Below, piece by piece: positions 231 through 15,067 of a stretch of 51,155 nt of DNA. This DNA comes from Butyricicoccus sp. Its GTDB lineage: Bacteria; Bacillota; Clostridia; Oscillospirales; Oscillospiraceae. The translations under genes and the position numbers were made by a program. Where the stretch lies: NCBI GenBank assembly GCA_023664105.1, contig JAMPGF010000001.1, positions 1-51,155 of the forward strand. The letters run 5' to 3'. Numbering within the stretch: the first letter of the stretch is position 1; each line of letters starts with the position of its first letter. The notes beneath the pieces were generated by a model. The model did not search any database, was not told the origin of the DNA, and saw only the letters and a list, made by a program, of their open reading frames with translations.

Positions 231-328
231 CCCAATAGGGTCCCTTCTGCAAATGGCATATGCCAAAAGCCGGAAAATGACCCTATTGGGATGCTTTTTT
301 ACCATGTCAATAGGGTGTACCCTAATGG
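231..328. repeat. Cluster of CCCAATAGGGT half-sites (res-like or operator-like) between the DUF3846 gene and the resolvase start
   Basis: CCCAATAGGGTC at 231-242 has its perfect inverted copy GACCCTATTGGG at 279-290. Palindrome TGGCATATGCCA lies at 254-265. An abutting imperfect inverted pair TCAATAGGGTG/TACCCTAATGG lies at 307-328. Confidence 0.45.
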
Positions 329-351
329 CACTGCTTCTTCCCCCTTCTTGC

Positions 352-714
352 TCACGCCATCGGCAGTACTACAAGATGACCGTTCAAGCTTATGAAAATC
401 TCCGGTACGGCAAACTTAGCTGTGAACTTCTCGATTTGCTCATCTGTCAGCGAAGCAAAGCTGTCTCCGTCTATCCCGCAAATAAAGAAGACCCCGCACA
501 CAACATCATAGAGCTTGTCGCTGCTGTTCTGCATAATACGGTTAGCTGGCAGTCCAAGTATTTTACCCTCATCATTACAGACTAAGGCAACAGGGTCATC
601 AAAAGGGTATAATGCCTGTATAAGCCCGCCTACAGTTTCCTGCATAGATTCCAGCGTACCGTCGATATCTCTGATTTTCGGCTTCCTTTCTGGTTCAACC
701 ACTAAAATGCGCAT
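352..714 (-). CDS. DUF3846 domain protein (typical of conjugative-element and phage accessory regions)
   Basis: N-terminus MRILVVEPERKPKIRDIDGTLESMQETVGGLIQALYP matches the DUF3846 pattern (M.vlvVEPgk.P....I.g.LesmQ..VGG.Ie). Its start is 3 nt from the upstream ORF stop. Confidence 0.75.
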   Translation of the reverse strand: MRILVVEPERKPKIRDIDGTLESMQETVGGLIQALYPFDDPVALVCNDEGKILGLPANRIMQNSSDKLYDVVCGVFFICGIDGDSFASLTDEQIEKFTAKFAVPEIFISLNGHLVVLPMA

Positions 715-716
715 AT

Positions 717-941
717 CTATCTTACCTCCTTAGCCAGATTGCTGAAAAGCTCATCTACCATATCGGCGTCAAAGCCGTCAATGATGTCATAGTCACGGCA
801 GAAGGTCAGAAACCGCTTGAACATGCCTCGACCGAATCCGGCCTCGATGCGGCTTATAATATGACCTTGACGTATGGAATCAAGGCAGTCTGTTAAATCT
901 CCGCTGGTATTGCGGAATCTGCAATAGCTCATGTTTGACAC
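717..941 (-). CDS. Hypothetical small protein (74 aa)
   Basis: GTG start with a GGTGGG RBS ~9 nt upstream. It sits in an operon between the amidotransferase and the DUF3846 gene. No family recognised. Confidence 0.5.
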   Translation of the reverse strand: MSNMSYCRFRNTSGDLTDCLDSIRQGHIISRIEAGFGRGMFKRFLTFCRDYDIIDGFDADMVDELFSNLAKEVR

Positions 942-969
942 TGTTGTTATCCCACCTTATAAAAGCTCG

Positions 970-1896
970 TTATAGCCTTCCACAGTAAAGGAAATCCTCT
1001 ACATCTTCCAAGGTAAAGCCCTGCTCTAATATCGCGTCTATGTTCTCCGGAGTGTAGCCGAAGGATGCCGCCACAGACTTCACCTCGTCAAGATGCTTCT
1101 GCTCACGGCTTGCCCTGCGCTGATAGGAAAATCCCGTATAGAAGCCATACCGCATTGGCCAGCCAGACAAGAAGGATGACGTATCAAACTCAGCGCGAGT
1201 GATACCGCCAGCAGGGGAGACTTTCAGAATTTCTCCGCAGTCAGCCTTGATTTTTACGGGCTTTCCCATACGGAGCCGTGCCTTCCCCAAAAATTTGCTG
1301 AGTATTTCATCTGTAGAGGCATAGAGATACAGACTATAACGGGGGAAGTGCAACAGGCACATGGGGTTGTCTCCCTTAACCAGATACCAGTTATTCGCCT
1401 CGTCCAGAACGGTAAAAGTAAAAGAGCCCTCGACATGTTCAGCCATGTATTTCAGGCTGTCAAAGTCGAGGGCTTTCTTCTTCTCAATAAGCTGAACGGC
1501 AACGTAGCTGTCAGTCTGTATTTTGGTCTGTGGAAGCTTTTGAGAGCGGCGCAGTATGTGGTCGTTATGCAAAACGCCGTTGTGCGCCAGAGCAAAGCGT
1601 TTTCCACCCACCTGTCCTAAAAACGGGTGATTGTTATAGTTTTTCTTCTCACTGCCTTGGGTGGTCATCCGTGTGTGGCCCATTACAGCTACAGCGTCGT
1701 TGGGAATACGGAAGTTCAGCTTATGAGCTGGAACAGGGCGCTTATAGACATGCAAGCTCCCGCCGGAATTATAGGCTATTCCGGTAGCGTCCGTGCCTCT
1801 TGCCTCACACTCAGCTGCAAGGACAGACAACAGCGCTGTTTTCTGCCTTCCTGTAAAGTTTCCTCCATAATCAAGCATACCAAAAAGACAGCACAT
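970..1896 (-). CDS. Class-II (Ntn-type) glutamine amidotransferase domain protein
   Basis: N-terminal MCCLFG places a nucleophile Cys directly after Met. GHTRMTTQG and HPF...ALAHNG motifs are typical of the GATase_2 / Ntn hydrolase fold. The start codon overlaps the amidoligase stop (TGATG). Confidence 0.8.
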   Translation of the reverse strand: MCCLFGMLDYGGNFTGRQKTALLSVLAAECEARGTDATGIAYNSGGSLHVYKRPVPAHKLNFRIPNDAVAVMGHTRMTTQGSEKKNYNNHPFLGQVGGKRFALAHNGVLHNDHILRRSQKLPQTKIQTDSYVAVQLIEKKKALDFDSLKYMAEHVEGSFTFTVLDEANNWYLVKGDNPMCLLHFPRYSLYLYASTDEILSKFLGKARLRMGKPVKIKADCGEILKVSPAGGITRAEFDTSSFLSGWPMRYGFYTGFSYQRRASREQKHLDEVKSVAASFGYTPENIDAILEQGFTLEDVEDFLYCGRL

Positions 1897-3008
1897 CAGA
1901 TTTCCTCCTCATTTGTTACAGGCTCATTGACATACAGACGCTGTTCCTTCAAATACTGCACCAGCTCCGGCTGGGTACAGCCGGACACAAACGAGGTCCA
2001 CGCCATTGCTTGCAGAAGCTCATCAGACATATTGACGGCCAAATCACATATCCTGTCTACAAGCTGCACGGTGGCGATCAGGGTATTGTATTTGAGTGTC
2101 CCCCGAAAGATGCGGAACTCTATTGTGTCGCTGTTTTGAAGGTTTACCGAGGCATAGCGCCCTCGGCCGCAGCCGCTCTTGGCGCTGTCAAGTATTTCCA
2201 TTGGTTGATCCTTATAGCCATATCTGGCAGCCCAACGGTCAAGTTGGCTTTTGCTGCGGCGGCTGAATTTCAGAAGCTCGTCCCAGAATTTCTCCACTAT
2301 GTAGAGTATACGGGCGATGCACATCTCCTGCTGTGTTTCCGTATAGCCGAAAGCGGAGCGGTTGACATGGATATGCAATCCGCAGGTATTCGCCTTATGC
2401 GACAGGTAGCCCATTTTAACAGCCTCACCCAAGAGCTCCAGCCATGGCATAGATTGTTGGTGGTATTCCAGCGTCATAGGGTGAGTGACGATTTCAAAGC
2501 CGTCGGAAAGGCTTCCGTCGTGCTTGCAATATACCCGCTCCACACCTCGGTTTGCCTGTCGCATTAACTGACAGGCATGGTCGGAGTCTTCGCCGCCAGC
2601 GTCTATTTCAAGCTCCACGCCGTAATAGCGGCTGCCCTTGCCGTAGAAGATGGGTGTTGGCTTATAGGAGTAGTCGTGTATTTCCTTGTCACGTTGGCTC
2701 CTGCAATAGCAGCTCCAACATAACGGGTCATCCTGATCGCAGTCCTCGTCAGCATAATAGGCGTCATCGCAGTTGATGGTCCTGCCGCAGTGTTCACAGG
2801 TGGTATAGAAATTGTCATAGCAGGATCGGCAGAGGGGTATGCGGTCGTCTCCGGCGTTGTCGTCGTTCCAGATGCGCCGTCCACAGCGGGAGCAGGTTGT
2901 TGTTTCCAGCCCTATACAGCTTGGACACAGGAGCTGATCGTCAAACTCTATGAGCGATCCAAGGGAATGGGCTTCGCCGCATACGCTGCATCTTTCGAGT
3001 TCTCTCAT
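1896..3008 (-). CDS. Amidoligase (Amidoligase_2 / glutamine-synthetase-like COOH-NH2 ligase) with an N-terminal triple zinc-ribbon region
   Basis: Motifs YGVELEID, KHDGSL.DGFEIVTHP, CGLHIHVN and TIEFRIFRGT match the putative amidoligase enzyme family. The N-terminal ~110 aa carry six CxxC pairs. RBS is GGAGGTAATACC-ATG. Confidence 0.8.
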   Translation of the reverse strand: MRELERCSVCGEAHSLGSLIEFDDQLLCPSCIGLETTTCSRCGRRIWNDDNAGDDRIPLCRSCYDNFYTTCEHCGRTINCDDAYYADEDCDQDDPLCWSCYCRSQRDKEIHDYSYKPTPIFYGKGSRYYGVELEIDAGGEDSDHACQLMRQANRGVERVYCKHDGSLSDGFEIVTHPMTLEYHQQSMPWLELLGEAVKMGYLSHKANTCGLHIHVNRSAFGYTETQQEMCIARILYIVEKFWDELLKFSRRSKSQLDRWAARYGYKDQPMEILDSAKSGCGRGRYASVNLQNSDTIEFRIFRGTLKYNTLIATVQLVDRICDLAVNMSDELLQAMAWTSFVSGCTQPELVQYLKEQRLYVNEPVTNEEEI

Positions 3009-3032
3009 GGTATTACCTCCATAAATAAATTG

Positions 3033-3055
3033 CGCGGAGCAGTCAGCTCCGCGCT
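3033..3055 (-). terminator. GC-rich hairpin downstream of the XRE gene and immediately upstream of the amidoligase RBS
   Basis: GCGCGGAGC-AGTCA-GCTCCGCGC. On the minus-strand RNA it is followed by AAUUUAUUUAU. Only ~25 nt separate it from the amidoligase start, so it may act as an attenuator rather than a full stop. Confidence 0.45.
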
Positions 3056-3146
3056 TTCTATGAAGATAATATATAATTTCAGATTTTTTTGCTTGCGATG
3101 ACAGTCATTGTCCATATTGTTTGTTACAATTACTGATAGAATGTTG

Positions 3147-3380
3147 CTAATCGTCGAATTTCAGGAATTTGTAGGCAGGAATATCCAGCGCTTCGGCAAT
3201 AGCGAACAGCGTATCCATGGAAATTGCTTTGCTGATATTCGGCGCTTCTACATGGCCGATAAAGGCGGGAGTGCAGCCTATTTCTTCCGCAAGCTGTTCC
3301 TGTGTTAATCCTGTCAATTTCCGAAAGTATGAAATTTTCAAGCCAAGCTGTAAATATTGCGATTTATAGTGGGGATCCAT
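3147..3380 (-). CDS. XRE-family helix-turn-helix transcriptional regulator
   Basis: LKISYFRKLTGLTQEQLAEEIGCTPAFIGHVE is a canonical HTH_3 (Cro/CI) signature. It is divergent from the WYL operon. Confidence 0.85.
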   Translation of the reverse strand: MDPHYKSQYLQLGLKISYFRKLTGLTQEQLAEEIGCTPAFIGHVEAPNISKAISMDTLFAIAEALDIPAYKFLKFDD

Positions 3381-3424
3381 ATATTCACCTCGTTTATCTC
3401 TATTTTACTCCGCAGCGACAACTA

Positions 3425-3453
3425 TTGACATGACTTGAAAATTATAATATTAT
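3425..3453 (+). promoter_or_regulatory. Sigma-A-type promoter candidate for the WYL operon
   Basis: TTGACA (3425-3430), 17-nt spacer, TATTAT (3448-3453). Palindrome GCTCTGACAGAGC (3495-3507) lies in the predicted 5' UTR. Confidence 0.45.
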
Positions 3454-3523
3454 ATCTCTAAGACAGTGATATATATTTTTGAGATACTTAACATGCTCTG
3501 ACAGAGCAAAAAGAGGTAAAATT

Positions 3524-4474
3524 ATGGAGCGAATTTCGGAGGCAAAATCCACACGTTTGCTGACAATATACGCAAGGCTCCTGTCGGGACAAGTATTGAA
3601 CAAGAGGGCACTTGCCCTTGAGTTCAATGTTACGGAGCGGAGCATACAGCGTGATATGGATTCCCTGCGCTGCTTTTTGTCAGATCAGGGATTGGCTCAA
3701 AACGTGCTGTACGACCGCGGCAAGTATGGCTACTACCTGACAGACATCTTACCAAGGGGACTGTCAAACAGCGAGATACTTGCGGTGTGCAAAATCCTTC
3801 TTGAAAGCCGTTCGATGAGGAAAGACGAGATGTTCCCGATTCTGGACAAACTTATAGACTGCTGTGTGCCAAAATCTAACAGGGCTCTTGTTCTGAATTT
3901 GCTTTCCAATGAAAAGCACCATTACATCGAGCCGCATCACGGCGTATCCGTTCTTGATTGGCTCTGGGAGATTGGACAGGCAGTGCAGCAGCACCGTGTG
4001 ATGGAGATCGAATACCAGAAGCTGAACGCGAGGGAATGGGTACATCGCGTTATAGAGCCGGTAGGTATACTGTTTTCCGAGTATTACTTTTACTTAGCTG
4101 CTTATATCCGAAATATTGACCGGAAAGAATCATTTGAAAACCCAGCGGACAATTTTCCAACAATTTACAGAATTGACCGTATACGTTCTCTGTGTGTGAC
4201 GGATGAACGATTTTCACCTGCTTATTCGGGCAGATTTCAGGAGGGGGAGTTCAGAAAGCGCGTTCAGTTTATGTACGGAGGCAAGCTGCAAACTGTGCGG
4301 TTTACCTATTCCGGACCATCTATCGAGGCTGTGCTGGACAGGTTGCCGACAGCTAAGGTAGTGGATGAGCAGGAGGGGGTGTATACGGTCCAGGCAGAGG
4401 TGTTCGGCAAGGGAATCGATATGTGGCTACGCAGCCAAGGGGAGTTTGTGAGAACAATTAACCAGATTAATTAG
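3524..4474 (+). CDS. WYL-domain transcriptional regulator (HTH + WYL; YafY/PafBC/BrxR/CapW-like architecture)
   Basis: Start moved to the ATG at 3524 (AGAGG RBS). The N-terminal HTH is TRLLTIYARLLSGQVLNKRALALEFNVTERSIQRDMDSLRCFL. The WYL-like core is PVGILFSEYYFYLAAYI...TIYRIDRIRSLCVTDERF. Confidence 0.8.
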   Translation: MERISEAKSTRLLTIYARLLSGQVLNKRALALEFNVTERSIQRDMDSLRCFLSDQGLAQNVLYDRGKYGYYLTDILPRGLSNSEILAVCKILLESRSMRKDEMFPILDKLIDCCVPKSNRALVLNLLSNEKHHYIEPHHGVSVLDWLWEIGQAVQQHRVMEIEYQKLNAREWVHRVIEPVGILFSEYYFYLAAYIRNIDRKESFENPADNFPTIYRIDRIRSLCVTDERFSPAYSGRFQEGEFRKRVQFMYGGKLQTVRFTYSGPSIEAVLDRLPTAKVVDEQEGVYTVQAEVFGKGIDMWLRSQGEFVRTINQIN

Positions 4475-4485
4475 GAGGTTATTTT

Positions 4486-5325
4486 ATGCTTTATGTGAAA
4501 CCAAAAAAAGAAGCACTTGCCATCCATGAGAAAGCAGTGGTCAAATACAATTCTGCCTTTCAAGAGATGGAAAAATTAGGAAATCGTCTTTATGACAAGC
4601 GACTTGATTGTGTTGCACTAATACAAGAGATTGAGCTGCTGGTGAACAGTATTGCCAATCGTCCAAAGGAATTTGAAAAAAAATTCTCCGAAATTGAGGA
4701 GGCAAGTAAGAAGTTTAAGGAAACTGAGGCTTATGCGGTGGAGGCAATGGAAGCTACTATAAAATCAGGAGCAAGTGTTGCTGCTGGTATAGCAGGTGGC
4801 GCTGCTGTAGCTGGTTTGGCACCCTCAGCTGCTATGTGGGTTGCTACAACATTCGGAACGGCCTCTACGGGAACAGCGATATCTGCGTTACATGGTGCAG
4901 TTGCCACTAAAGCAGCATTGGCTTGGTTAGGTGGTGGTGCATTATCTGCTGGTGGTGCAGGCATTGCGGGAGGAAAAGCACTTTTAGCACTTGCTGGCCC
5001 CATTGGTTGGGGGATTAGCGGAGTAACCACAGCAGCATCGGCTGTGGCACTGGGGCACAAAAACAAAGAAATCTCGGATAAGGCCATTGCTGAGGCAAAG
5101 GAAATTACCATTGCTGGTGCGGAAGTAAGCGAAGCCAGTGCAAAAATTCAACATCTTACGGATGAAACTCTTATGCTACTGGGTTCTCTGCGAGATATGA
5201 CACAAGCAAATATGCCTCTAAAGGGTGCAGACTACTTGGAACTGAGTGACAATGAGCAATATCGCCTCGGAACAATGGTAAACAACACCTTGGCTTTGGC
5301 AGAAATGCTTAATAAAACGATCTAA
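4486..5325 (+). CDS. Uncharacterised protein: charged helical N- and C-terminal segments flanking a ~100-aa Gly/Ala-rich glycine-zipper hydrophobic core
   Basis: GGAGG RBS 7 nt upstream, and the start is 11 nt after the WYL gene stop. The core reads GASVAAGIAGGAAVAGLAPSAAMWVATTFG...LGGGALSAGGAGIAGGKALLALAGPIGWGISGV, with repeated small-xxx-small spacing. No family recognised. Confidence 0.7.
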   Translation: MLYVKPKKEALAIHEKAVVKYNSAFQEMEKLGNRLYDKRLDCVALIQEIELLVNSIANRPKEFEKKFSEIEEASKKFKETEAYAVEAMEATIKSGASVAAGIAGGAAVAGLAPSAAMWVATTFGTASTGTAISALHGAVATKAALAWLGGGALSAGGAGIAGGKALLALAGPIGWGISGVTTAASAVALGHKNKEISDKAIAEAKEITIAGAEVSEASAKIQHLTDETLMLLGSLRDMTQANMPLKGADYLELSDNEQYRLGTMVNNTLALAEMLNKTI

Positions 5326-5336
5326 GGAGGATGGCT

Positions 5337-6797
5337 ATGGACGCTGCACAAATCGTAAAAAGCACACAGGAACAGGGCGTTGCTGCATGGGTAAATTACC
5401 TGAATCAACTGAGGTTGAATGAGCTGGTGACAAAGCTTACTGCACAAGATACAAACCTGGAGGAGGCATTGGCAGAAATCCAAAAATTCAAATGTTTTAT
5501 CGGAGACCCAAATCATATTTTAGGCAGTGCAACTACGAAGCATGGTGAAATTGCGGAGAATGCCCAGGTCTATATTTCAAATGCCAGAAGGTTAATTGAG
5601 GGTTTATCTAAAGAGTTCACTTTTGAAGGAGTTGCCCGGACCGCTCCAGAAGATTATTTAAAAAATGGTCAACAAATTCAATCGAAATTTTTGCATGATG
5701 TGAAAGCAACACTAAACGGAAGCGGGAATGCCGAAGGCATCAGGCAACATATAGGAAAATATCCTTGGTTTGTGAAAAATGGTGGCTCTTATGATATCCC
5801 TAAAAATCAGTATGACGAAATCATGCGTGTTCTGCAATTACGGCAGGATTCCCCCACTCTATTAACAAGAGGGGATAGACGTTTGCTTGCAGCTATTGAT
5901 TCCTTTGAGAAAGAAACTGGATTACGCATATCTAAAGATGTGCGTCCCGCTGTGGTAAACTATAGCGATGTTCAGCAAGGAAAAGCCAATAAAACCATTT
6001 TAAAAGAAGAAACATCAATTAAAGATACAGACCAGAAGCGTCGTGATAACGCATATGAAGCCAGCAAACCCACGCTGAAACAGGGGGCGCAGGCCACTGT
6101 TGTTTCGGCTGCGGTGGAAGGTGGCATATCATTTTGCCTTGGCATAGCGAAAAAGCATAAACAAGGCAAACACCTTGCAGATTTCACGGCGGAGGATTGG
6201 CAGGAAGTTGGCATTGATACCGTAAAAGGAACAGCTCAAGGAGGTATCCGGGGTGGAGTAATTTATGCCATGACAAATTTTACTGCCACTCCCGCAGCTG
6301 TTGCAAATGCATTGGTAACAGCATCTTTTGGAATTGCAGCACAGGCTTATCAACTTCGGCAAGGCAATATTACGGAGGAAGATTTTATTGTAAACTCAGA
6401 GGTGCTTTGTCTTGATGTGTCTGTAAGCGCACTTGCTTCAATGTTGGGTCAGGTTTTGATTCCCATCCCCGTCCTTGGAGCAATAATTGGAAATGTGGCA
6501 GGCATGTATATGTATCAGATTGCAAAGGAACACCTTTCTGAGAAGGAGCAGGAACTGATTGCCAACTATCGCGAGAGTTTTGCAAATCTCAATGAAATAC
6601 TGGAGGAAAGATATAAAGAACTGATTGCCCGATTGAAAAAGGAATTTGCAAAGTATACTTCTGTATTGGAACTCGCCTTCGACATTAATGTCAATGTTGC
6701 TTTCAGCGGTTCCATTGCCTTGGCAAATTATGTTGGTGTAGCTCCTGAAAATATATTGATGAGCAAGCAGGATATTGATAAATTTTTTTTGAATTAA
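5337..6797 (+). CDS. Uncharacterised protein: ~235-aa soluble N-terminal domain plus a polytopic hydrophobic C-terminal region and a coiled-coil tail
   Basis: The second ATG (5337) has better spacing from AAGGAGG than the track start at 5331. Hydrophobic segments are VVSAAVEGGISFCLGIA, GGVIYAMTNFTATPAAVANALVTASFGIAA and LASMLGQVLIPIPVLGAIIGNVAGMYMY. No family recognised. Confidence 0.7.
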   Translation: MDAAQIVKSTQEQGVAAWVNYLNQLRLNELVTKLTAQDTNLEEALAEIQKFKCFIGDPNHILGSATTKHGEIAENAQVYISNARRLIEGLSKEFTFEGVARTAPEDYLKNGQQIQSKFLHDVKATLNGSGNAEGIRQHIGKYPWFVKNGGSYDIPKNQYDEIMRVLQLRQDSPTLLTRGDRRLLAAIDSFEKETGLRISKDVRPAVVNYSDVQQGKANKTILKEETSIKDTDQKRRDNAYEASKPTLKQGAQATVVSAAVEGGISFCLGIAKKHKQGKHLADFTAEDWQEVGIDTVKGTAQGGIRGGVIYAMTNFTATPAAVANALVTASFGIAAQAYQLRQGNITEEDFIVNSEVLCLDVSVSALASMLGQVLIPIPVLGAIIGNVAGMYMYQIAKEHLSEKEQELIANYRESFANLNEILEERYKELIARLKKEFAKYTSVLELAFDINVNVAFSGSIALANYVGVAPENILMSKQDIDKFFLN

Positions 6798-6813
6798 AAG
6801 GAGGATATGTTAA

Positions 6814-7350
6814 ATGGAAACAAATAATAGCGTCAACTATGAGGATGATTTTTTGGAGGATGTCCAAGAGTACGAGTACAAGGAGATGATTGAAAAGGCC
6901 AATAACATTGTGCTTGGCTTTACAGCATCCACTGGTGTGACTGGTGTAGTTCCCATACCGTTTGCTGATGCTCCACTGCTAATTGCGCAGCAAGTAGCTA
7001 TGATGGTTGCTATTAATGGAGTTTTTGAGTTTGACATTGAGCGTGACGCACTCAAATCTCTTGCTACGGCGGCGATTGGTGTTGGAGGCGCAACTGTGAT
7101 AGGTAAAACCGTTGCATCAAATCTCTTGAAGATGATTCCTGGAGTTGGATCGGTAGCAGGAGGAGCTATTTCTGCTGGCACAGCAGGGGTAATTACATTG
7201 GCATTGGGTAAAGCCTACATAGAAGTATGCAAGGCAATCAAAATGGGTAAGTTGGATCAGAGTGATTTGACAAAAAAAGCTGGGTTGGATATGCTCAAAA
7301 AATCTTTCAAGGAGCAGATGAAGAAAAAGAAGAGTGGCGATTCAGATTAA
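6814..7350 (+). CDS. DUF697-like membrane-associated protein (YcjF-type domain), stand-alone
   Basis: AAGGAGG RBS. GVVPIPFADAPLLIAQQVAMMVAINGVFEF fits the DUF697 core pattern (sP.p..D...l...q..Mi..Ia..yG). It is followed by Gly-rich hydrophobic segments and a lysine-rich tail. Confidence 0.6.
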   Translation: METNNSVNYEDDFLEDVQEYEYKEMIEKANNIVLGFTASTGVTGVVPIPFADAPLLIAQQVAMMVAINGVFEFDIERDALKSLATAAIGVGGATVIGKTVASNLLKMIPGVGSVAGGAISAGTAGVITLALGKAYIEVCKAIKMGKLDQSDLTKKAGLDMLKKSFKEQMKKKKSGDSD

Positions 7351-7388
7351 AGTCCTGACACGGTTATCTACCTATGAGCTTAATTAAG

Positions 7389-7417
7389 TTGACACTTACC
7401 CAACATCATGGTAAACA
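7389..7417 (+). promoter_or_regulatory. Promoter candidate for the excisionase-like gene
   Basis: TTGACA (7389-7394), 17-nt spacer, TG-n-TAAACA (7409-7417; extended -10-like). Confidence 0.35.
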
Positions 7418-7442
7418 ATCCACCGCAAAGGAGTGCGATACC

Positions 7443-7631
7443 ATGCTGGACGAATATGCTGATATCCTGACTGCTGACGAGGCTTGCGAGGTGCTGCGGG
7501 TAGGTTATAACACCCTGTACGCCATGCTCAACTCTGGGGAACTTAAAGCCTACCGAAACGGGCGCAGCTGGAGGATACCAAAGCTGGCTGTGCAGGAGTA
7601 CATACTGAAAAATGCCAGACTCAGCGCATAA
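7443..7631 (+). CDS. Excisionase-family / MerR-superfamily helix-turn-helix DNA-binding protein (HTH_17)
   Basis: Start moved to the ATG at 7443 (AAGGAG RBS). ILTADEACEVLRVGYNTLYAMLNSGELKAYRNGRSWRIPKLAVQEYI is the typical excisionase-type wHTH signature. Confidence 0.75.
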   Translation: MLDEYADILTADEACEVLRVGYNTLYAMLNSGELKAYRNGRSWRIPKLAVQEYILKNARLSA

Positions 7632-7637
7632 GAGGGG

Positions 7638-7667
7638 AGGCACCGGAACAGCTCCGGTGCCTTTCTC
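7638..7667. terminator. Bidirectional intrinsic terminator between the excisionase-like and relaxase genes
   Basis: AGGCACCGGA-ACAGC-TCCGGTGCCT followed by TTCTC. It lies between convergent stops at 7631 and 7672. Confidence 0.6.
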
Positions 7668-7671
7668 ACAC

Positions 7672-8163
7672 TTAATAATCTTTGCTTGACACATATTGTA
7701 GTTTATTGATACCGTAGTGTCTCAGTATGCCTCTCAAGGCGCTCTGAAACGCATAAAACTCCGATTTTCGTCCGTAATAGCGCGCACCAGTACGGTAACT
7801 CACTGAGTTATGTACAAGATGAAAATGAAGATTGGGCTTGTCCTCATGTACCGAGTAGAGGGCTTGATATTCTTGCCCTATATACTTTGCTGTATGTTGA
7901 GCAATTTCATTGGCAACAGCAGGATCATTCAATTCCCATGCCTCAAAGGAAATTATAAAGTGCCGAAGCTGAACACCATCCGTTTTGCCAAACCGCTCAG
8001 ATACAAGCGTCATACTTCCGGCGGGATTTATAAGGTCAACGCCTACTCCGCCAAAATACCCATGGATTGCTTTGTCCGCGCGGAAAATGTATTCGGTAAG
8101 CACCTCCTTGGCGTCTTCATTAAAGTATCTGCCTTTTCCATTTGCAGTTTTTAATATTGCCAT
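7672..8163 (-). CDS. Relaxase/mobilisation nuclease domain protein (MobA/VirD2-type), unusually short at 163 aa
   Basis: LRHFIISFEAWE and the histidine triad region HEDKPNLHFHLVHNSV fit the relaxase H.D...H.H..N motif. It is flanked by an AT-rich upstream region. Confidence 0.75.
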   Translation of the reverse strand: MAILKTANGKGRYFNEDAKEVLTEYIFRADKAIHGYFGGVGVDLINPAGSMTLVSERFGKTDGVQLRHFIISFEAWELNDPAVANEIAQHTAKYIGQEYQALYSVHEDKPNLHFHLVHNSVSYRTGARYYGRKSEFYAFQSALRGILRHYGINKLQYVSSKDY

Positions 8164-8434
8164 TTTAATCTCTCCTTATATTATCCTATATATTCTAATT
8201 ATTATATATTATCTTATTAATTATCTATATACAGTGTATATAACTAATCTAATACATAATTTTAATCTACTTACTTTTACTTTCTATATTGGTAGCAAGG
8301 GGAAGAACAGTATATATGTCCTTCCCCTTGGGGGCCCAAGTATTCTTTACATAATCGTTAGTTCCGTTATAAAAAATTACCTTGCGTTTTGCTCTATAAA
8401 TTCAGCCCTCACAAGCATTGCTGCCTTGTGGGGG

Positions 8435-9880
8435 CTAAATCTTCCATATGATGTTGACGCGGTTATCTTCCAGCAGGATGCGTTCTATAAACTCCGATGC
8501 TATCAGTTTCTTTTCCTCAAAGCTGGCGGCATCAAAGTCAAGACGTTTGCTGCATGGGGCCGGAGCTGTGCTTTGCGTAAGCAGAGTCTCGCGCTGTTTG
8601 TGAAGCTTGTCAATTTGCCTGGATATATATACGGCGGATATCTCGCTGCTCTCAGCCAAGGCATTGACCAGGCGCTCTATTTTTTGTTCCACGGCAAGAA
8701 GTGCCTCGGATATTTCCTGATTGTCTGTGCCTATGTCCTCCGCAGGACAGTCTGACAGCACATCTTTGATCTGAGCAGCAATCTGCTGCTCCAGCTCACG
8801 AAGGTCAATATGAATAGCTGCATCGCAGTTGGCCAGGTTGGAGCGGCCTGAGCATATCAGATAAAAACGTTTATCCGGTTTACTGTAGTTTATCTTCACC
8901 GCATAGCCACATTTATTGCATTTCATCAGTCCGGTAAGCCACGAGTATTTTCCGGCATTGGCGTGGGAAATCTGAGGGTTCTTTGCCAGCTTTTCCTGTA
9001 CGCGGAGCCAAAGGCCGGAGTCAATAATTCCCCCGTGGTTGGCAACTGTTAATTGTTGTCCCTCGAGGGAATTGTACTTATTCCTGCTTCTGTCTCTTCG
9101 TCCGATAACATTACATGCGTGAACGCCGTCAAAAGCCTCTAATGGCTGCTGTATCTGCATACCCATAGCCAGATAGTGTAAATACACATCCTCGTCCGCG
9201 CAAACGTACAGAGGGCTATGTAAGAGGCGAGAGAGGGTAACATTGTCCCAAGCCTCGCGCTTAGGGCCGTGGATACCCTGCGCAGTCAGATCTCTGGCGA
9301 TGCTGCGAAGGGAAACCTCCGGCCTTGCATACTCCTCAAAGATTTTCCGGACAATACTTGCCTGTCCGTTGGCGCGCAGCGATGACACCCGACGTTCATT
9401 GTCTGTGACCTTGATTAAATCAAAGCCATATGGAGCGGGGCCTCCTGGCCATGCACCCAGGGAAAAACGGTGAATATAGTTATCCTTGACACGTTCAGCA
9501 GTTGTCTCCCGCTCCAGCTGTGCAAAGACAAGCACGATGTTGAGCATTGCCCGACCGATAGGGGAGGATGTGTCAAAATTCTCGGTTACAGACAGGAACT
9601 CCACACCATACTTCTGAAACACCTCCCACAATCGACTGAAATCCGCTATAGACCGACTGAAGCGGTCAAGGCGGTATACATACACCTTTTTGATCTGACC
9701 CGCCTCTACGGCCTGCATAAGCTCTGTAAAGGCGGGGCGCTTTGTGTTCTTACCCGAAAAACCCTTGTCCTGAAAAACGCGGTAGTTCTCGTTCGCGTAT
9801 TTGCGGCAGTACTCTATCTGCCCCTCTATGGACAAACTGTCTTTTTTGTCTATAGATTGTCTTGCGTAAATTGCGTCCAT
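8435..9880 (-). CDS. Large serine recombinase (integrase)
   Basis: N-terminal resolvase domain MDAIYARQSIDKKDSLSIEGQ with catalytic Ser, YVYRLDRFSRS, a recombinase domain, a zinc-ribbon (CNKCGY...CSGRSNLANC) and a C-terminal coiled coil. Confidence 0.95.
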   Translation of the reverse strand: MDAIYARQSIDKKDSLSIEGQIEYCRKYANENYRVFQDKGFSGKNTKRPAFTELMQAVEAGQIKKVYVYRLDRFSRSIADFSRLWEVFQKYGVEFLSVTENFDTSSPIGRAMLNIVLVFAQLERETTAERVKDNYIHRFSLGAWPGGPAPYGFDLIKVTDNERRVSSLRANGQASIVRKIFEEYARPEVSLRSIARDLTAQGIHGPKREAWDNVTLSRLLHSPLYVCADEDVYLHYLAMGMQIQQPLEAFDGVHACNVIGRRDRSRNKYNSLEGQQLTVANHGGIIDSGLWLRVQEKLAKNPQISHANAGKYSWLTGLMKCNKCGYAVKINYSKPDKRFYLICSGRSNLANCDAAIHIDLRELEQQIAAQIKDVLSDCPAEDIGTDNQEISEALLAVEQKIERLVNALAESSEISAVYISRQIDKLHKQRETLLTQSTAPAPCSKRLDFDAASFEEKKLIASEFIERILLEDNRVNIIWKI

Positions 9881-9883
9881 GGC

Positions 9884-9997
9884 TCAACCCTCCGAGCGAT
9901 GCGCGCGTATAAGGAGAATGCAGCGGCGGTGAATTGCAGCCTGACGTGCCAGACGTTCTTTAACGTCTTTTGTTGTGAATGTGTTTGTAATAATCAT
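9884..9997 (-). CDS. Small ORF (37 aa) immediately upstream of the serine recombinase; possible DNA-binding or directionality factor
   Basis: Not in the ORF track (<60 aa). A strong GAGGAGG RBS lies 8 nt before the ATG. It encodes MIITNTFTTKDVKERLARQAAIHRRCILLIRAHRSEG. Its TGA lies 3 nt before the recombinase ATG. Confidence 0.35.
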   Translation of the reverse strand: MIITNTFTTKDVKERLARQAAIHRRCILLIRAHRSEG

Positions 9998-10211
9998 GAT
10001 AGTGTCCTCCTCATGAAAATGATATGTAGCTGAACCGAACCAATATTACTGAACGAACAGCCTTATGAGAAGGTTATGTCTTGTGTAAAACTTTACAAAC
10101 GCACAGTGATTAGCCGCTTGGGCAGCTCTGGCTAACAAGGATGATATAAGGTCGCTTTTTGTCCACGATAACTTATATAGAAAGAATAAGAATTTTCCCT
10201 ACAAAATCACT

Positions 10212-10240
10212 TTTCCTACAAGCGTAAGTTGTGATATAAT
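10212..10240 (+). promoter_or_regulatory. Extended -10 promoter candidate reading into repeat copy A and the 603-aa ORF
   Basis: TG-A-TATAAT at 10232-10240 with a weak -35 (TTTCCT, 10212-10217). Confidence 0.45.
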
Positions 10241-10270
10241 TAGCAAAAAGGAGTGAATTCACAAATGCTA

Positions 10271-10430
10271 ATACTAAAAACCGTTAAAAAGCTTTAATTC
10301 TATGTAAAGCTTTTTATAGCGCCGAAGGCGCGTCGGTTTTTTAATGAGACGGCACGCCGCGCAAAGCGCGGCGTGAGCGTGCGCAGCACGCGGAATTTCA
10401 AATTAAAGAATTTAATTTGAAATTAGTATA
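10271..10430 (+). repeat. Structured dispersed repeat, copy A (~160 nt; ATACTAA...TTAGTAT closing helix)
   Basis: Shares the conserved blocks ATACTAA, TATAGCGCCGNAGGCGCGTC, TTTTAATGAG, GAGCGTGCGNAGCACGCG and AATTAGTAT with 40441-40680 and, inverted, with 48061-48207. It contains five hairpins plus two enclosing helices. Confidence 0.85.
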
Positions 10431-10478
10431 AACGATTATGATGACATTCTTTGCGGCTACCACGTTGATAAGCGTTAT

Positions 10479-12290
10479 ATGTACATCAAGGATATAGAAA
10501 AACAAAAAAAGGACCGTCGACAAGAGATTATCGATACAATTAATGCGAGAGCATATATTAGCAATAGAAACCGATGTTATCCACCCTATTCCACTCCACA
10601 ATATCAAAATCCAGCGCTTTTCTTTTGGGCTATAAATGAGAATTTGCGGATACTTGGAACGAACCTGGAGCTTAATATGACCAGCATCGATGAATTGAGT
10701 CCTTATAGACAAAGAGAAATAAAAAGCGTATTGGGAGATTCGTGGTGGGAAGAACCTTTGCAAGACGTTTATTTTTATTTGGAAACACTACAATTTTCAG
10801 AATACTATAACGCGTTGCTGGCTTTTAAATGGGCAGCTCATTTGATATCATTTCCTTTGTTTGAGCAATATAACTGCGTACAAATGATTGACGGTAAGCT
10901 GTTTTGCAGATTATCCAACCAAAATGAGCTAAAGGATGATTATACTCGTATAGTACGATTAAGTAATGGTTTATACTTGTATAAGTATGATCCTCAAAAG
11001 AGTGTGAAGAAAGGCGAGCAAGGGGAAGGTTTGTTACTGCTGACTGATGAAATAGTGGGCGGATTAATCCGGCTGAATGGTGGTCAAAAGGATTTTTCAT
11101 TACGAAAGAAAAAGGATTTGGGTAAACACTTGGTCGAACTGCATGAGGATGATCCGTACGCTAAAAGGAACAGATTAGAAGGCGAAAAGGTAGTGCGCTA
11201 TCGGGAAGGTGTACTGGAATATGTTCCAACTATGGCTAAGGTACGATTCTCCCAAAAAAATGTTCCCGAATTGATATATTTGCCTTCTTTGGGCGGCTAT
11301 CCAGAGGAGGCCAAGCCATCAAAGCGCCTGGAAAATACGTTGCTATCTTTAACAAATGGGGATTTAGATAAGTTAGATGTTCTGGCAGAATTTCTGGCAC
11401 GTACATTTTGCATATCTGCACCGTCTAAGTACCTTTGGTATGTTCATGGAAATAGCGCAGCATTTGCCCAGTGGGTCGAAAAAATGGTTGAGGGCAAAAC
11501 GTGCAGCACAGTTTACAATCCCAAGCTCACTCAGGCAAGAATGGATCTCATATATGATCAAATAAAACAGCACCTAATTCAGTTTAATTCTGATCCGATA
11601 TCCGCAACAGAGTTCGCCAAATTGAACCACTCAAAATTAAATGGATACATAAACGGTGGTGAAATTATTGTCGTTGATGATCCCTATCAAATAAAGGAGA
11701 CCGAAAGCTACTATCCCCTTGTTGCATTTTTTAGCGAGGGGAACAGTATGGACACTGAAAAAGCATTTAGATCATTACCATATAAGGAAATCAATGTTCC
11801 AGACGGATGGACCTCAAAAGACCTCTCCCGTGAGGATTTCCAATGGCTGAAAATTTGCTTAGTTGCGAAAGGGTTGCAGTTAATTCAAGGATATGAACGT
11901 CGCAAAGTACAATCGGAACAAATAAATATAGATCACGTTGTTCGTCGGTTTGCAAATGATTTTTGCAAGCGCATTAAAGACAGTCGTACTGGATGTAAAA
12001 CGTTTTATAAAGCTTTGAAAAATTATTTAGATACTCTTCCGTATGATGGTAAGCTCGAAGGTTCGACCAAGACCACTGAATATGTGGCAGCACTAATGAA
12101 TTGGGAGTGTAAAGATGACAGGAAGAACAAAAATAGAAAAGCCTTCTGGGATATCTATCTTGATGAGGACAAGCTAAATGCAGCGATAGAAGAAAACAAG
12201 GCCAAAAAAGAGCAAGAGCAGCAGGAACGGGCTGCTCGCAGCTTCCACGAATACTTAAACGAGATTACTGAGCTTGTAATCTGGTCGTAA
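10479..12290 (+). CDS. Hypothetical 603-aa protein; C-terminal half weakly resembles P4/D5-type primase-helicase C-terminal regions but with a degenerate Walker A
   Basis: The long AT-rich ORF has no competing frame. KYLWYVHGNSAAFAQWVEKMVEG sits where G.G.NGKS is expected. GGEIIVVDDP is Walker-B-like. VVRRFANDFC...TFYKALKNYL is D5-C-terminal-like. No clear RBS at 10479, so the start is uncertain. The stop coincides with the element junction. Confidence 0.55.
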   Translation: MYIKDIEKQKKDRRQEIIDTINARAYISNRNRCYPPYSTPQYQNPALFFWAINENLRILGTNLELNMTSIDELSPYRQREIKSVLGDSWWEEPLQDVYFYLETLQFSEYYNALLAFKWAAHLISFPLFEQYNCVQMIDGKLFCRLSNQNELKDDYTRIVRLSNGLYLYKYDPQKSVKKGEQGEGLLLLTDEIVGGLIRLNGGQKDFSLRKKKDLGKHLVELHEDDPYAKRNRLEGEKVVRYREGVLEYVPTMAKVRFSQKNVPELIYLPSLGGYPEEAKPSKRLENTLLSLTNGDLDKLDVLAEFLARTFCISAPSKYLWYVHGNSAAFAQWVEKMVEGKTCSTVYNPKLTQARMDLIYDQIKQHLIQFNSDPISATEFAKLNHSKLNGYINGGEIIVVDDPYQIKETESYYPLVAFFSEGNSMDTEKAFRSLPYKEINVPDGWTSKDLSREDFQWLKICLVAKGLQLIQGYERRKVQSEQINIDHVVRRFANDFCKRIKDSRTGCKTFYKALKNYLDTLPYDGKLEGSTKTTEYVAALMNWECKDDRKNKNRKAFWDIYLDEDKLNAAIEENKAKKEQEQQERAARSFHEYLNEITELVIWS

Positions 12291-12292
12291 AA

Positions 12293-12562
12293 ACGTCCCT
12301 TGAAGCCGCTGCCAGTGGGGACAGTCTCGACTGGAAGGAGCTTTCGGCCTCGGAGATACATAAGCGTGTGACTGGGGGCGTGCAGGCGGGGAGCATTGTG
12401 CTGTTCCACAACGCCGCGCTGCACACGCCGGAGGCGCTGGCGGGGATAATCGAATACCTGCTGGCAAACGGCTATAATATTGTGCCTGTATCCGAGCTTT
12501 TGCTGACGGGGGAGTTTGAAATGGATCACACGGGCAGAATGTGCAGGCCCGGAACGGCCTGA
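12293..12562 (+). pseudogene. 3' fragment of a polysaccharide deacetylase (NodB/PdaB-like) gene, truncated by the element
   Basis: The in-frame translation from ~12293 is ...GDSLDWKELSASEIHKRVTGGVQAGSIVLFHNAALHTPEALAGIIEYLLANGYNIVPVSELLLTGE. This is the C-terminal third of NodB-fold deacetylases (DxxDW and LxH motifs). There is no N-terminal catalytic part and no start or RBS. The exact 5' boundary is uncertain. Confidence 0.7.
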
Positions 12563-12578
12563 CGGATTCAGGTTTTAC

Positions 12579-12621
12579 GCCGGTGCGGGGCAGCGTTTGC
12601 TTCCCTCACCGGCATTTTTTT
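12579..12621 (+). terminator. Intrinsic terminator after the deacetylase fragment
   Basis: GCCGGTGCGGGGCAGC-GTTT-GCTTCCCTCACCGGC (two G-U positions) followed by ATTTTTTT. Confidence 0.7.
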
Positions 12622-12684
12622 GCCGAAGCAGAAAATAAATGCTGTTTTTCCAACAAAAAATGTCTTCTGAAGGCCTTTAATTAT

Positions 12685-12700
12685 TGTCAATCGATTGACA
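12685..12700. promoter_or_regulatory. Perfect 16-bp palindrome (operator candidate) upstream of the nfnAB promoter
   Basis: TGTCAATCGATTGACA, 5 nt upstream of the -35 element. Confidence 0.4.
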
Positions 12701-12705
12701 GGCGC

Positions 12706-12733
12706 TTGACAATCGGCAGGATAGTAGTATAAT
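12706..12733 (+). promoter_or_regulatory. Sigma-A-type promoter candidate for nfnAB
   Basis: TTGACA (12706-12711), 16-nt spacer, TATAAT (12728-12733). Confidence 0.55.
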
Positions 12734-12834
12734 ATACATAAATTAAAGGGGAAAAAATTATAGTTTATGCCCTATTAAGTACACTGTAATCAATTCAATG
12801 ACAAGGGATAAAATATATTTAGGAGGCAGTACGT

Positions 12835-13677
12835 ATGTACAAAATTGTCAAAAAGGAGGCGCTCAGGCCCGCGGTCATACTTTACGAGATTGAAGCGCCT
12901 CGCATCGCCAGGAAGGCTCAGCCCGGTCAGTTCATAATCCTTCGCGTGGACGAAAACGGCGAGCGTATCCCCATAACCGTTCATGATACGGACGCTGAGA
13001 AGGGGACCGTCACCATTATCGTGCAGATCGTTGGTTCGACCACGGCCAAGCTCAATCACCTCAAGGAGGGCGATTGCCTCCAGGATTTTGTGGGCCCGCT
13101 GGGACGGCCTACGGAGACCGAGGGAAGGAAAAAGGTCTGCGTTGTCGGCGGCGGTGTCGGCTGCGCGATCGCGTATCCCGTGCTGCGTAAGTTCCACGAA
13201 AGCGGAGCGGAGGTACATGGAGTCATTGGATTCAAGAGCAAGGACTTCGTCATTCTTGAGGATAAGTTCCGCGAATCTTCCTCGCTGCTGAAGGTATGTA
13301 CGGATGACGGCAGCTACGGCGAAAAGGGTCTCGTTACTCAGGCTCTGAAGCAGCTGATAGACGACGGCAACGAGTACGACGAGGTTTTCGCAATCGGCCC
13401 GATGATAATGATGAAGTTTGTCAGCGAAACCACGAGGCCGTACGGCATAAAGACCACGGTGTCGATGAGCCCCATCATGATAGACGGAACCGGCATGTGC
13501 GGCGGCTGCCGTCTCAGCGTCGGCGGCAAGACGAAGTTCGCCTGTGTCGACGGCCCCGACTTCGACGGTCACGAGGTGTCCTGGAACCTGGCTATCGACC
13601 GCAACAAGAGCTATATGGAGTTTGAAAGGCACAGATACGAAGAAACCTGCAGGCTGTTCCAGCAGGAGGAGGGTTAA
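12835..13677 (+). CDS. nfnA: NfnA-type sulfide/dihydroorotate dehydrogenase-like FAD/NAD-binding subunit
   Basis: AGGAGG RBS. The N-terminus MYKIVKKEALRPAVILYEIEAPRIARKAQPGQFIILRVDENGERIP, the Rossmann VCVVGGGVG and the C-terminal cluster motif GTGMCGGCR...FACVDGP are typical of NfnA/GltD-partner proteins. Confidence 0.85.
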   Translation: MYKIVKKEALRPAVILYEIEAPRIARKAQPGQFIILRVDENGERIPITVHDTDAEKGTVTIIVQIVGSTTAKLNHLKEGDCLQDFVGPLGRPTETEGRKKVCVVGGGVGCAIAYPVLRKFHESGAEVHGVIGFKSKDFVILEDKFRESSSLLKVCTDDGSYGEKGLVTQALKQLIDDGNEYDEVFAIGPMIMMKFVSETTRPYGIKTTVSMSPIMIDGTGMCGGCRLSVGGKTKFACVDGPDFDGHEVSWNLAIDRNKSYMEFERHRYEETCRLFQQEEG

Positions 13678-13681
13678 TGAT

Positions 13682-15067
13682 ATGGCCAACATGAGTTTGA
13701 AGAAGAACCCCATGCCCGCGCAGGAGCCTGAGGTTCGCAACAAGAATTATAGCGAGGTGGCTCTCGGCTACACCGAGGAAATGGCCCTTGACGAGGCAAA
13801 GCGCTGCCTTAACTGCAAGAACAGCCCCTGCATCAAGGGCTGTCCGGTACAGATACATATCCCCGAGTTCATCTCCAAGGTCGCGGAGGGCGATTTTGAA
13901 GCGGCGTATCAGATAATCGCGAAAACAAGCTCACTGCCCGCCGTGTGCGGCCGCGTCTGCCCGCAGGAGACCCAGTGCGAGATGCACTGCGTGCGCGGCA
14001 TAAAGGGCGAGGCTGTCGGCATCGGCCGTCTGGAGCGTTTTGTTGCCGACTGGCACAACGCCCACAGCACCGAGAAGGCGGAAAAGCCCGAGCCCAACGG
14101 CCACAAGGTCGCGATAGTCGGCTCCGGCCCCGCGGGACTTACCTGCGCGGGAGACCTGATAAAGAAGGGCTATGACGTGACTGTGTTTGAGGCCCTGCAT
14201 GTCCCCGGCGGCGTGCTGGTGTACGGTATACCCGAGTTCCGTCTGCCGAAGTCCATAGTCAAGAAGGAAGTCGACGGCCTCAAGGCTCTCGGCGTGAAGA
14301 TCGAGACAAACACTGTTGTTGGCAGGACCATCTCCATCGAGGAACTCATGGAGGACGAGGGCTTTGAGGCTGTGTTCATCGGCTCCGGAGCAGGGCTTCC
14401 CATGTTCATGGACATTGAGGGAATAAACAGCCGCGGCGTCTGCTCTGCCAACGAGTTTTTGACCCGCATCAACCTCATGAAGGGCTACCTGCCCGAGTCT
14501 GACACGCCAGTGCAAAAGGTAAAGAACGTCGCGGTCATCGGCGGCGGCAACGTGGCGATGGACGCCGCCCGCTGCGCAAAGCGCCTGGGCGCGAATGTTT
14601 ACATCGTATACCGCCGCGGCATGGATGAGCTTCCCGCACGTAGGGAAGAGGTCGAGCACGCCGAGGAGGAAGGAATAATCTTCAAGACCCTGACCAACCC
14701 GGTCGAGGTGCTTGCCAACGATGACCACGAGGTCACGGCAATACGCTGCATAAAGATGGAGCTTGGCGAGCCCGACTCCTCGGGACGTCCCCGTCCGGTG
14801 CCGGTTCCGGGAAGCGAGTTTGACATTGAGGTCGACACCGTTATCATGTCTCTGGGAACCAGCCCCAACCCGCTTATCAAGGACACCACGGATCATCTGG
14901 AGACAAACCGCAAGGGTGGCATAATCGTCAACGAGGACGGCTTGACCTCGCTGCCGAATATCTACGCAGGCGGCGACGCCGTGACCGGCGCGGCCACGGT
15001 TATCCTCGCCATGGGCGCGGGCAAAACCGCTGCCGCCGCGATTGATAAGTCGCTGAGCGGTAAATAA
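13682..15067 (+). CDS. nfnB: NfnB / NADPH-dependent glutamate synthase homotetrameric-type subunit
   Basis: Start moved to the ATG at 13682 (GGAGGG RBS). Cys clusters are CLNCKNSPCIKGCP and CGRVCPQETQCEMHC. Dinucleotide folds are VAIVGSGPAGLTCA and VAVIGGGNVAMDAA. Confidence 0.9.
   Translation: MANMSLKKNPMPAQEPEVRNKNYSEVALGYTEEMALDEAKRCLNCKNSPCIKGCPVQIHIPEFISKVAEGDFEAAYQIIAKTSSLPAVCGRVCPQETQCEMHCVRGIKGEAVGIGRLERFVADWHNAHSTEKAEKPEPNGHKVAIVGSGPAGLTCAGDLIKKGYDVTVFEALHVPGGVLVYGIPEFRLPKSIVKKEVDGLKALGVKIETNTVVGRTISIEELMEDEGFEAVFIGSGAGLPMFMDIEGINSRGVCSANEFLTRINLMKGYLPESDTPVQKVKNVAVIGGGNVAMDAARCAKRLGANVYIVYRRGMDELPARREEVEHAEEEGIIFKTLTNPVEVLANDDHEVTAIRCIKMELGEPDSSGRPRPVPVPGSEFDIEVDTVIMSLGTSPNPLIKDTTDHLETNRKGGIIVNEDGLTSLPNIYAGGDAVTGAATVILAMGAGKTAAAAIDKSLSGK

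Follow-up and report, generated by a model that had tools for sequence, protein, structure and literature searches.

The 51,155-nucleotide stretch of Butyricicoccus sp. DNA analysed here (hereafter the window) opens inside a mobile element that splits a gene. Positions 1-12319 belong to an integrative element of the large serine recombinase (LSR) type; they cover its right-hand 12.3 kb, the rest being clipped by the contig end, and on its right the element adjoins the displaced 3′ third of a PdaB-like polysaccharide deacetylase gene. Relatives of the element occupy the same site in other genomes, cited below by locus number (L001 and so on). It is proposed that this is a gene-intervening element comparable to skin and gin, excised in the mother cell during sporulation, a reading whose prospects are judged to be evenly balanced.

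To the right of the junction, the forward frame is open from position 12272 to a stop codon at 12560-12562 (translation ACNLVVKTSLEAAASGDSLDWKELSASEIHKRVTGGVQAGSIVLFHNAALHTPEALAGIIEYLLANGYNIVPVSELLLTGEFEMDHTGRMCRPGTA, with the C-terminal stretch ...SLEAAASGDSLDWKELSASEIHKRVTGGVQAGSIVLFHNAALHTPEALAGIIEYLLANGYNIVPVSELLLTGEFEMDHTGRMCRPGTA) and is shut upstream by a TAG at 12269-12271. This frame matches the last 65 of the 191 positions (127-191) of the NCBIfam PdaB model TIGR02764 (E 5.5e-13, 49 bits) and shares 60-77% identity with the C-terminal ends of some 80 intact Oscillospiraceae orthologues. It keeps the invariant DSLDW and LFHNA residues in its DSLDW and LFHNAA motifs; the 96-residue remnant alone had no Pfam match. 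The first 175 codons of the gene are missing from the window, a tblastn search with residues 1-176 of an intact orthologue returning a best E of 0.47. A preliminary description of this DNA had seen here only the C-terminal third of a deacetylase and a terminator, with no N-terminal part, ribosome-binding site or start, and had set an element junction inside a PdaB-type gene at a switch in base composition. All of this holds, the GC fraction being 0.37-0.53 across 1-12 kb versus 0.55-0.65 past 13 kb. The junction itself is real, but the coordinate given for it, 12280, lies about 40 bp too far left: alignment to intact genes begins at 12316-12320, and the crossover is placed at a GA dinucleotide at 12320-12321.

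The intact attachment site (attB) in about 50 species reads ...ATCCAGTGGGAYGTG-GA-CAGCCTGGACTGGAAGGA (codons Q W D V D S L D W K), and the right-hand junction (attR) of the window reads ...CTTGAAGCCGCTGCCAGTGGG-GA-CAGTCTCGACTGGAAGGA, with the insertion point falling within codons W-D-V-D|S-L-D-W. From these alignments GA is predicted to be the crossover core of attR; as attB overlaps by GGA, GG could also serve. The 21 bases before GA are taken as the element's own P arm because elements otherwise unrelated have counterparts of them at their ends (CTTGAACCCGCTGCCAGTGTG in L003 and CTTCCAACCGCTGCCGGTGGG in L096; also CTTGAACCCGCTGCCGGTGGG in L147), and this arm and the P′ arms found at the left-hand junctions (attL) form imperfect inverted repeats. 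With L147 as the source, the rebuilt element site (attP) has the form of an imperfect palindrome, CTTGAACCCGCTGCCGGTGGG-GA-TACGCTGGCAGCAGTTGGAATCC, as is expected for an LSR site, and the attL pattern predicted for the 5′ half is ...CAGTGGGAYGTG-GA-(T/A)NCGCTGGCAGC.GTTGGAA... Hybrid attL and attR sites lie at both ends of five complete relatives; the window shows attR alone. Judged by sequence comparison, these sites have the hallmarks of LSR attachment sites, namely short length, a 2-bp core, an inverted-repeat attP and hybrid attL and attR. Two classes of junction can be distinguished: homology to attB ends at GA in class 1, to which the window belongs, and continues through TGGGATGT in class 2 (L001, L007 and L100). 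The exact P-arm pattern had no match in metagenome contigs. The attP pattern CTTGAASC-N13-GA-N13-GNTTCAAG had 24 matches in viral contigs, none of them near an LSR and by rough estimate about the number expected by chance, and these were rejected.

The missing half of the gene was found in relatives carried whole on their contigs. Measured from core to core, these elements span 12,139 bp (L147), 11,954 (L148), 6,719 (L176 and nine others), 7,084 (L221) and 15,729 (L207). The two gene halves stand at the two ends in direct orientation in all five complete elements examined, and joining them at GA gives a full-length in-frame deacetylase open reading frame (ORF) in four (L148, L176, L221 and L207). 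The L147 join is also in frame, but its 5′ half is cut about 65 codons in; at L147 20122-21388 the N-terminus of the deacetylase is replaced by an unrelated 300-residue ORF, possibly the result of the gene's having been disrupted a second time. The joined L176 protein occurs intact in nature: P0310 matches it at 100% identity and belongs to a cluster of 825 sequences. The contig that encodes P0310 shares 99.2% identity with both L176 flanks and has a GGA overlap with them. As this contig is a natural empty site of the L176 flanks, occupied and empty alleles coexist in one species. The supposition in the preliminary description that the 5′ part lies beyond the unseen end of the element was correct for these relatives, and intact orthologues do exist, in about 80 species, together with the empty site; the two halves were seen at both ends in the five complete relatives only, the attL of the window being off the contig.

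Among the relatives, the full-length LSR closest to that of the window belongs to L147 (82% identical). Gene order in L147 follows that of the window all the way from attR to the small resolvase gene, the one difference being that L147 lacks the block of WYL, PDC-M09 and DUF697 genes, which is accordingly regarded as an inserted cargo module. By this colinearity, the attL of the window would lie about 2.7 kb to the left of position 1, giving an element of about 15 kb in total. The L147 counterpart of the unseen 2.7 kb holds a resolvase, an HD-domain protein and a 172-residue protein, then attL and the N-terminal half.

Searches from either side of the split gene returned many further cases. 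A protein search with the fragment found mostly C-terminal fragments of 81-150 residues that share the same cut residue and are preceded by translated P arms (...LEAAASG|DSLDWK...); the 9:1 excess of fragments in this first search is not a frequency and probably stems from the way candidates were gathered and clustered, the N-terminal search giving about 1 in 5. In the latter, 22 of the 120 best matches to an N-terminal profile were N-fragments of 186-230 residues in which ...IQWDV(D/E) gives way to a conserved foreign sequence, xSQTxSSxW, the translation of the P′ arm. Because the N-fragments run into this arm, the deacetylase gene is truly split, with no replacement 3′ end. Scanning metagenomes with the window LSR yielded 80 loci whose LSRs are 64-85% identical to it; the C-fragment lies 1-6 kb upstream of the LSR in about 50, most of the others being on contigs that stop short of it. 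The 481-residue LSR of L096, 63.5% identical to that of the window, sits in the same layout of minus-strand LSR, small upstream ORF, cargo gene, attR and C-fragment. The same target site is also used by prophages with an LSR directly at attR (L001 and L108), by an element with relaxase and coupling-protein genes (L003), and by islands carrying surface-protein or sugar-metabolism genes (L091, L096 and L100). The recurrence of the same recombinase, att arms and target with exchangeable cargo marks a large LSR element family in gut Oscillospiraceae, one widely spread in gut metagenomes. The agent suspected in the preliminary description, a large serine recombinase, is made likely by the 481-residue LSR in the window and by relatives that adjoin the same fragment.

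More distant loci in IMG/VR (L111, L114 and L115) encode LSRs 34-36% identical to that of the window, adjoining distant NodB C-fragments 35-40% identical to the window fragment; in protein alignment these fragments start at or near a DSLDW-type motif. Such a motif may be a landing site well beyond the PdaB-like gene family.

The recombinase gene is preceded by a conserved ORF of 37 residues whose stop codon falls a few bases before the LSR start. Homologous ORFs of 36-41 residues are present in every LSR relative examined (e.g. L096 5055-5165 and L176 9885-9995; consensus MIIKNTYSTVDPIERSARQAAICRRCLLLLAARAQR), and they match no known family. GirX of the gin element is a directionality factor of 42 residues with no motifs (PMC5595907), and on this precedent of size the 37-residue ORF is a candidate recombination directionality factor. 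In many relatives (L152, L154, L159, L160 and others, at about 10001-10327), a short resolvase-like ORF, 35% identical to LSR residues 35-146, lies upstream of the unit of small ORF and LSR and may be the remnant of a second serine recombinase. LSR matches of about 2.1 kb had raised the idea of an intron in the LSR gene, which was rejected, as they include this separate ORF.

Upstream of the operon, seven diverged and otherwise unalignable lineages have a single conserved block in common, KMATAHH, 14-15 nt, CATAYHAT. It takes the form TCATACA-15-CATATTAT in L147, GAATAAT-15-CATATTAT in L148 and TCATATT-15-CATATTAT in L150, and with a 14-nt spacer GAATAAC-14-CATACATT in L176 and GCATATC-14-CATAGGCT in L096. 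The pattern matches once on the two strands of the window (10019-10048, minus strand) against 0.12 expected. Each of the 51 distinct upstream regions has it, with no instance on the opposite strand; these are also the sequences from which the strict pattern was drawn up, and they amount to about seven independent lineages. No sigma-70-like site was found upstream of the LSR operon. The −35 element of sigma-E promoters is ATA, and CATATTAT has been described as the "canonical -10 box for mother cell sigma factors" (PMC3789822); the LSR and the 37-residue ORF appear to be co-transcribed from a sigma-E-type promoter.

The target gene also points toward sporulation. Intact orthologues contain the NodB domain PF01522 (Polysacc_deac_1) and have PdaB as their best family at 194-216 bits; because these scores are under the TIGR02764 equivalog cut-off of 237.4, which counts against assignment to PdaB proper, the gene is termed PdaB-like. 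In B. subtilis, pdaB (spoVIE) belongs to the sigma-E regulon and its loss reduces sporulation efficiency to 5% (PMC4703394), and C. difficile has three sigma-E-dependent polysaccharide deacetylases (PMC3789822). Of 89 distinct loci, 25 have the motif ATA-N16-18-CATA...T (typically ...TCATAGGAT) at 45-60 nt before the start of the deacetylase gene, against 1 on the reverse strand and 1.0 in shuffles, and L054 and L059, which share the downstream synteny of the window, are among the 25. Sporulation genes lie beside the deacetylase in related loci, including sigG in L001 and the genes for SpoVT and a SleB-like hydrolase in L091. The presence of sigma-E-type promoters before both the recombinase operon and its target lends indirect support to the skin-like reading.

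Under that reading, sigma-E would switch on the operon of LSR and 37-residue ORF within the mother cell; the LSR, together with the candidate directionality factor, would cut the element out at GA only in this terminally differentiating cell. Excision would rebuild the sigma-E-dependent deacetylase gene where it is needed, and the forespore chromosome would keep the element. Several points weigh against this proposal. No excision product, circular form or empty-site contig was found in X1, the sequencing run of the source isolate, which gave one unitig at about 14x and whose contigs cannot reveal rare forms. Neither attL nor the 5′ gene half of the window element is on the contig, and a scan of ten host ORFs in the window turned up no sporulation gene. 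A recombinase expressed under sigma-E alone would also leave integration into a new vegetative host to be explained.

Further points tell both against mother-cell excision and in favour of plain insertion, in which a mobilisable LSR element would use NodB-motif DNA as a safe, invariant landing site, the deacetylase would be inactivated or redundant, and excision would serve transfer only. This explanation is the main rival, its prospects somewhat short of even. The relaxase-domain gene and cargo resemble those of an ordinary mobilisable element, and to these can be added the excisionase-family helix-turn-helix (HTH) gene and the exchange of cargo within the family. The site is polymorphic within one species, and empty alleles are common, as for any active mobile element; it is used by unrelated elements, both the prophages L001 and L108, whose LSRs lack the sigma-E-like motif, and the relaxase and coupling-protein element L003. 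In 3 of 56 occupied alleles the C-fragment is frameshifted or shortened (including L155 2807-2975), so the split gene is decaying in some strains, and these fragments together with the additional truncation of the L147 5′ half indicate that restoration of the ORF is not always maintained.

Plain insertion is less easily reconciled with the other features of the family. The only conserved block upstream of the LSR fits a promoter type of the mother cell rather than sigma-70, and the target gene itself has mother-cell-type promoters. The minimal 6.7-kb members are common in human gut assemblies, yet among their ORFs scanned, which comprise the LSR unit, FeoA/FeoB, a receiver-domain protein and a DUF4143 fragment, there was no relaxase-domain match and no other mobilisation gene. 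The 80-codon C-fragment is still open in 53 of the 56 occupied alleles; the ratio of nonsynonymous to synonymous substitution rates is uninformative on these split alleles, 43 of the 56 being identical.

Phage 21 and e14 bring a replacement 3′ end for icd. An element that supplied such an end at its left side would make the window fragment a functionless leftover, an explanation that is very improbable here. Loci L007-L010 do resemble it: an intact deacetylase gene of 258 residues is followed 2.7 kb downstream by a second C-fragment, about 76% identical, at a class-2 junction (in L007, gene at 6517-7293 and fragment at 10053-10306). Between the two lies a DUF3298 lipoprotein gene and no recombinase, and the arrangement looks like the scar of an element with its own 3′ end, or a decayed element. 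N-terminal halves at class-1 junctions, however, end 10-60 codons past WDV(D/E) in element sequence with no replacement, and the attL of L147 is followed by unrelated genes; restoration of the target in the manner of icd was not seen at class-1 junctions, only the L007-type loci being similar to it. That an element contig was artificially joined to a host contig has next to no likelihood, for although the contig breaks in a high-copy repeat at its other end, a single 3573-base unitig of X1 covers 11300-13800 and crosses the junction at even depth, and the identical junction type recurs base for base in dozens of independent assemblies.

The remaining genes of the window element (Table 1) are those of an element that looks mobilisable. 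All three domain scores of the LSR exceed the Pfam cut-offs, giving the domain architecture of a large serine recombinase, and the relaxase-domain gene, whose product has only 163 residues, holds the same place in most relatives that reach that far. Type IV secretion genes were found neither among the window ORFs scanned nor among the subset of L147 ORFs scanned. The cargo block includes both genes of the PADLOC candidate defence system PDC-M09 (A, 4486-5325, 324 bits; B, 5331-6797, 602 bits), and the backbone block at 352-3008 is colinear in L147, L148 and many other relatives. At the left edge, bases 1-54 have about 1500-1700x depth in X1 versus 15.6x elsewhere (about 100-fold) and three different continuations; the contig ends at position 1 because of this high-copy repeat.

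The slot next to attR is filled by a 603-residue ORF in the window, with no match in Pfam, NCBIfam or PADLOC, by a 1422-residue SLH surface protein in L096 (5573-9841) and by a 714-residue ORF of no assigned function in L003 (7315-9459). As the large gene differs from element to element, this suggests a variable cargo position. The idea that the 603- and 714-residue ORFs hide a recombinase was dropped, the two being mutually unrelated and without domain matches. No match to the element came from megablast searches of plasmid and phage collections, nor did a full-length single-protein scan of viral contigs give any, and a near-identical copy of the window element was found only in the source isolate run. 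On the host side, past the deacetylase terminator, a perfect sigma-70 consensus promoter (TTGACA, 16 nt, TATAAT) at 12706-12733 precedes a sulfide/dihydroorotate dehydrogenase-like gene at 12835-13677.

Table 1. Features of the window at the element junction and within the element, with the evidence for each.
Feature	Position	Strand	Evidence or remarks
Crossover core GA of attR, predicted	12320-12321	+	attR (window, L003, L096, L147, L176), attL (L091, L147, L176), about 50 intact attB, natural empty site
P arm of attP, terminal recombinase-binding arm of the element	12299-12319	+	CTTGAAGCCGCTGCCAGTGGG
Displaced 3′ third of PdaB-like NodB polysaccharide deacetylase gene	12320-12562	+	80 codons plus stop; without start codon or ribosome-binding site
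Intrinsic terminator of the deacetylase gene	12579-12621	+	Hairpin 12579-12613 then T7; -26.6 kcal/mol, z -2.9
Large serine recombinase, 481 aa	8435-9880	-	Pfam PF00239 Resolvase 131.7, PF07508 Recombinase 59.2, PF13408 Zn_ribbon_recom 41.6 bits
Conserved 37-aa ORF, directly upstream of and coupled to the recombinase gene	9884-9997	-	MIITNTFTTKDVKERLARQAAIHRRCILLIRAHRSEG
Conserved sigma-E-like promoter	10019-10048	-	TAATATT, 15-nt spacer, CATATCAT
603-aa ORF, variable cargo slot between recombinase promoter and attR	10479-12290	+	No family match
Small relaxase-domain protein (MobA/VirD2 nuclease domain), 163 aa	7672-8163	-	PF03432, 76.6 bits
Excisionase-family HTH_17 DNA-binding protein, 85 aa	7374-7631	+	Profile matches; also in L146 and L147
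Cargo: WYL regulator, candidate defence system PDC-M09, DUF697 protein	3479-7350	+	Pfam and PADLOC
XRE-type HTH regulator	3147-3380	-	Domain match; also in L147
Amidoligase_2	1896-3008	-	Conserved backbone
Class-II glutamine amidotransferase	970-1896	-	Conserved backbone
DUF3846 protein	352-714	-	Conserved backbone
74-aa ORF	within 352-3008	-	Conserved backbone
Small serine resolvase gene, first 54 codons, runs off contig start	52-213	-	80% identical to 182-aa resolvase of L147

The known targets of developmentally excised intervening elements are few, namely sigK, spsM, spoVFB, spoVR, gerE and yabG, in Bacillus and Clostridium. Open-literature text searches found no paper in which a deacetylase gene or pdaB provides the attB of an LSR or is targeted by an intervening element, and the LSR element family at this site is apparently undescribed. 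Among clostridial mobile elements, Tn5397 (TndX) and Tn4451 (TnpX) are likewise LSR elements with a GA crossover dinucleotide and a mobilisation function, but they differ in their looser target choice and resistance cargo, and to our knowledge neither is linked to a sporulation gene or sporulation promoter. The system in the window appears to resemble skin, SPbeta and above all gin, with the structural features of such elements present in its relatives.

The skin element of B. subtilis is an LSR-bearing element in a mother-cell gene (sigK, with SpoIVCA as recombinase) and is retained in the germ line, since only the mother-cell copy is excised. The sigma factor sigma-E is encoded by spoIIGB. 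A title in the reference list of the gin paper gives spoIVCA as dependent on the spoIIGB product (PMC5595907). In skin(Cd) of C. difficile, control is exerted through a sigma-E-dependent directionality factor and not through the recombinase (PMC5025042). Unlike the present family, which spans 6.7-16 kb, is non-phage and carries modular cargo, skin is a 48-kb defective prophage. In the case of SPbeta in spsM, the LSR SprA and the directionality factor SprB rebuild a split mother-cell gene, and attB has dyad symmetry inside a coding sequence; SPbeta, however, is an active phage whose excision is also triggered by DNA damage (PMC4191935, PMC5499854), and its nearer analogues are the prophages L001 and L108 at the deacetylase site rather than the window element. 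The closest parallel is gin in gerE of Bacillus cereus ATCC 10987 (PMC5595907), which is not a phage, interrupts a sporulation gene of the mother cell, encodes an LSR (GirC) and a tiny motif-less accessory protein (GirX, 42 residues), carries additional serine recombinase genes and rebuilds the ORF by precise excision. It differs in its target, gerE as against a PdaB-like deacetylase gene, and in its host, Bacillus as against gut Oscillospiraceae. The genes girX and girC stand apart in gin; the small ORF of the window, by contrast, immediately precedes the LSR gene and is coupled to it, and the sporulation timing has been demonstrated by experiment for gin and is only predicted here.

A fuller proposition can be put forward, tentatively and with prospects somewhat below even, in which modular LSR cassettes are widespread in gut Oscillospiraceae within a sigma-E-dependent spore-cortex deacetylase gene, are excised solely in the mother cell by the LSR and a new 37-residue directionality factor, both made from a sigma-E promoter, use the NodB motif as a general landing pad and carry cargo free of cost. 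Should excision prove not to be developmental, the site would still be a defined integration hot-spot, explaining hundreds of "truncated deacetylase" calls in metagenome catalogues. The family also constitutes a natural set of LSRs with base-precise attP, attB, attL and attR and a candidate miniature directionality factor, of interest for genome engineering. If the proposition is true, a new target gene, the deacetylase, and a new bacterial family, the hard-to-culture gut Oscillospiraceae, would be added to the known range of intervening elements, and NodB-motif DNA would be a general landing pad for prophages and conjugative elements as well. Sporulation would then pay no price for cargo such as defence systems, iron uptake genes and surface proteins, and such elements would be common in the human and animal gut as carriers of defence systems and other cargo.

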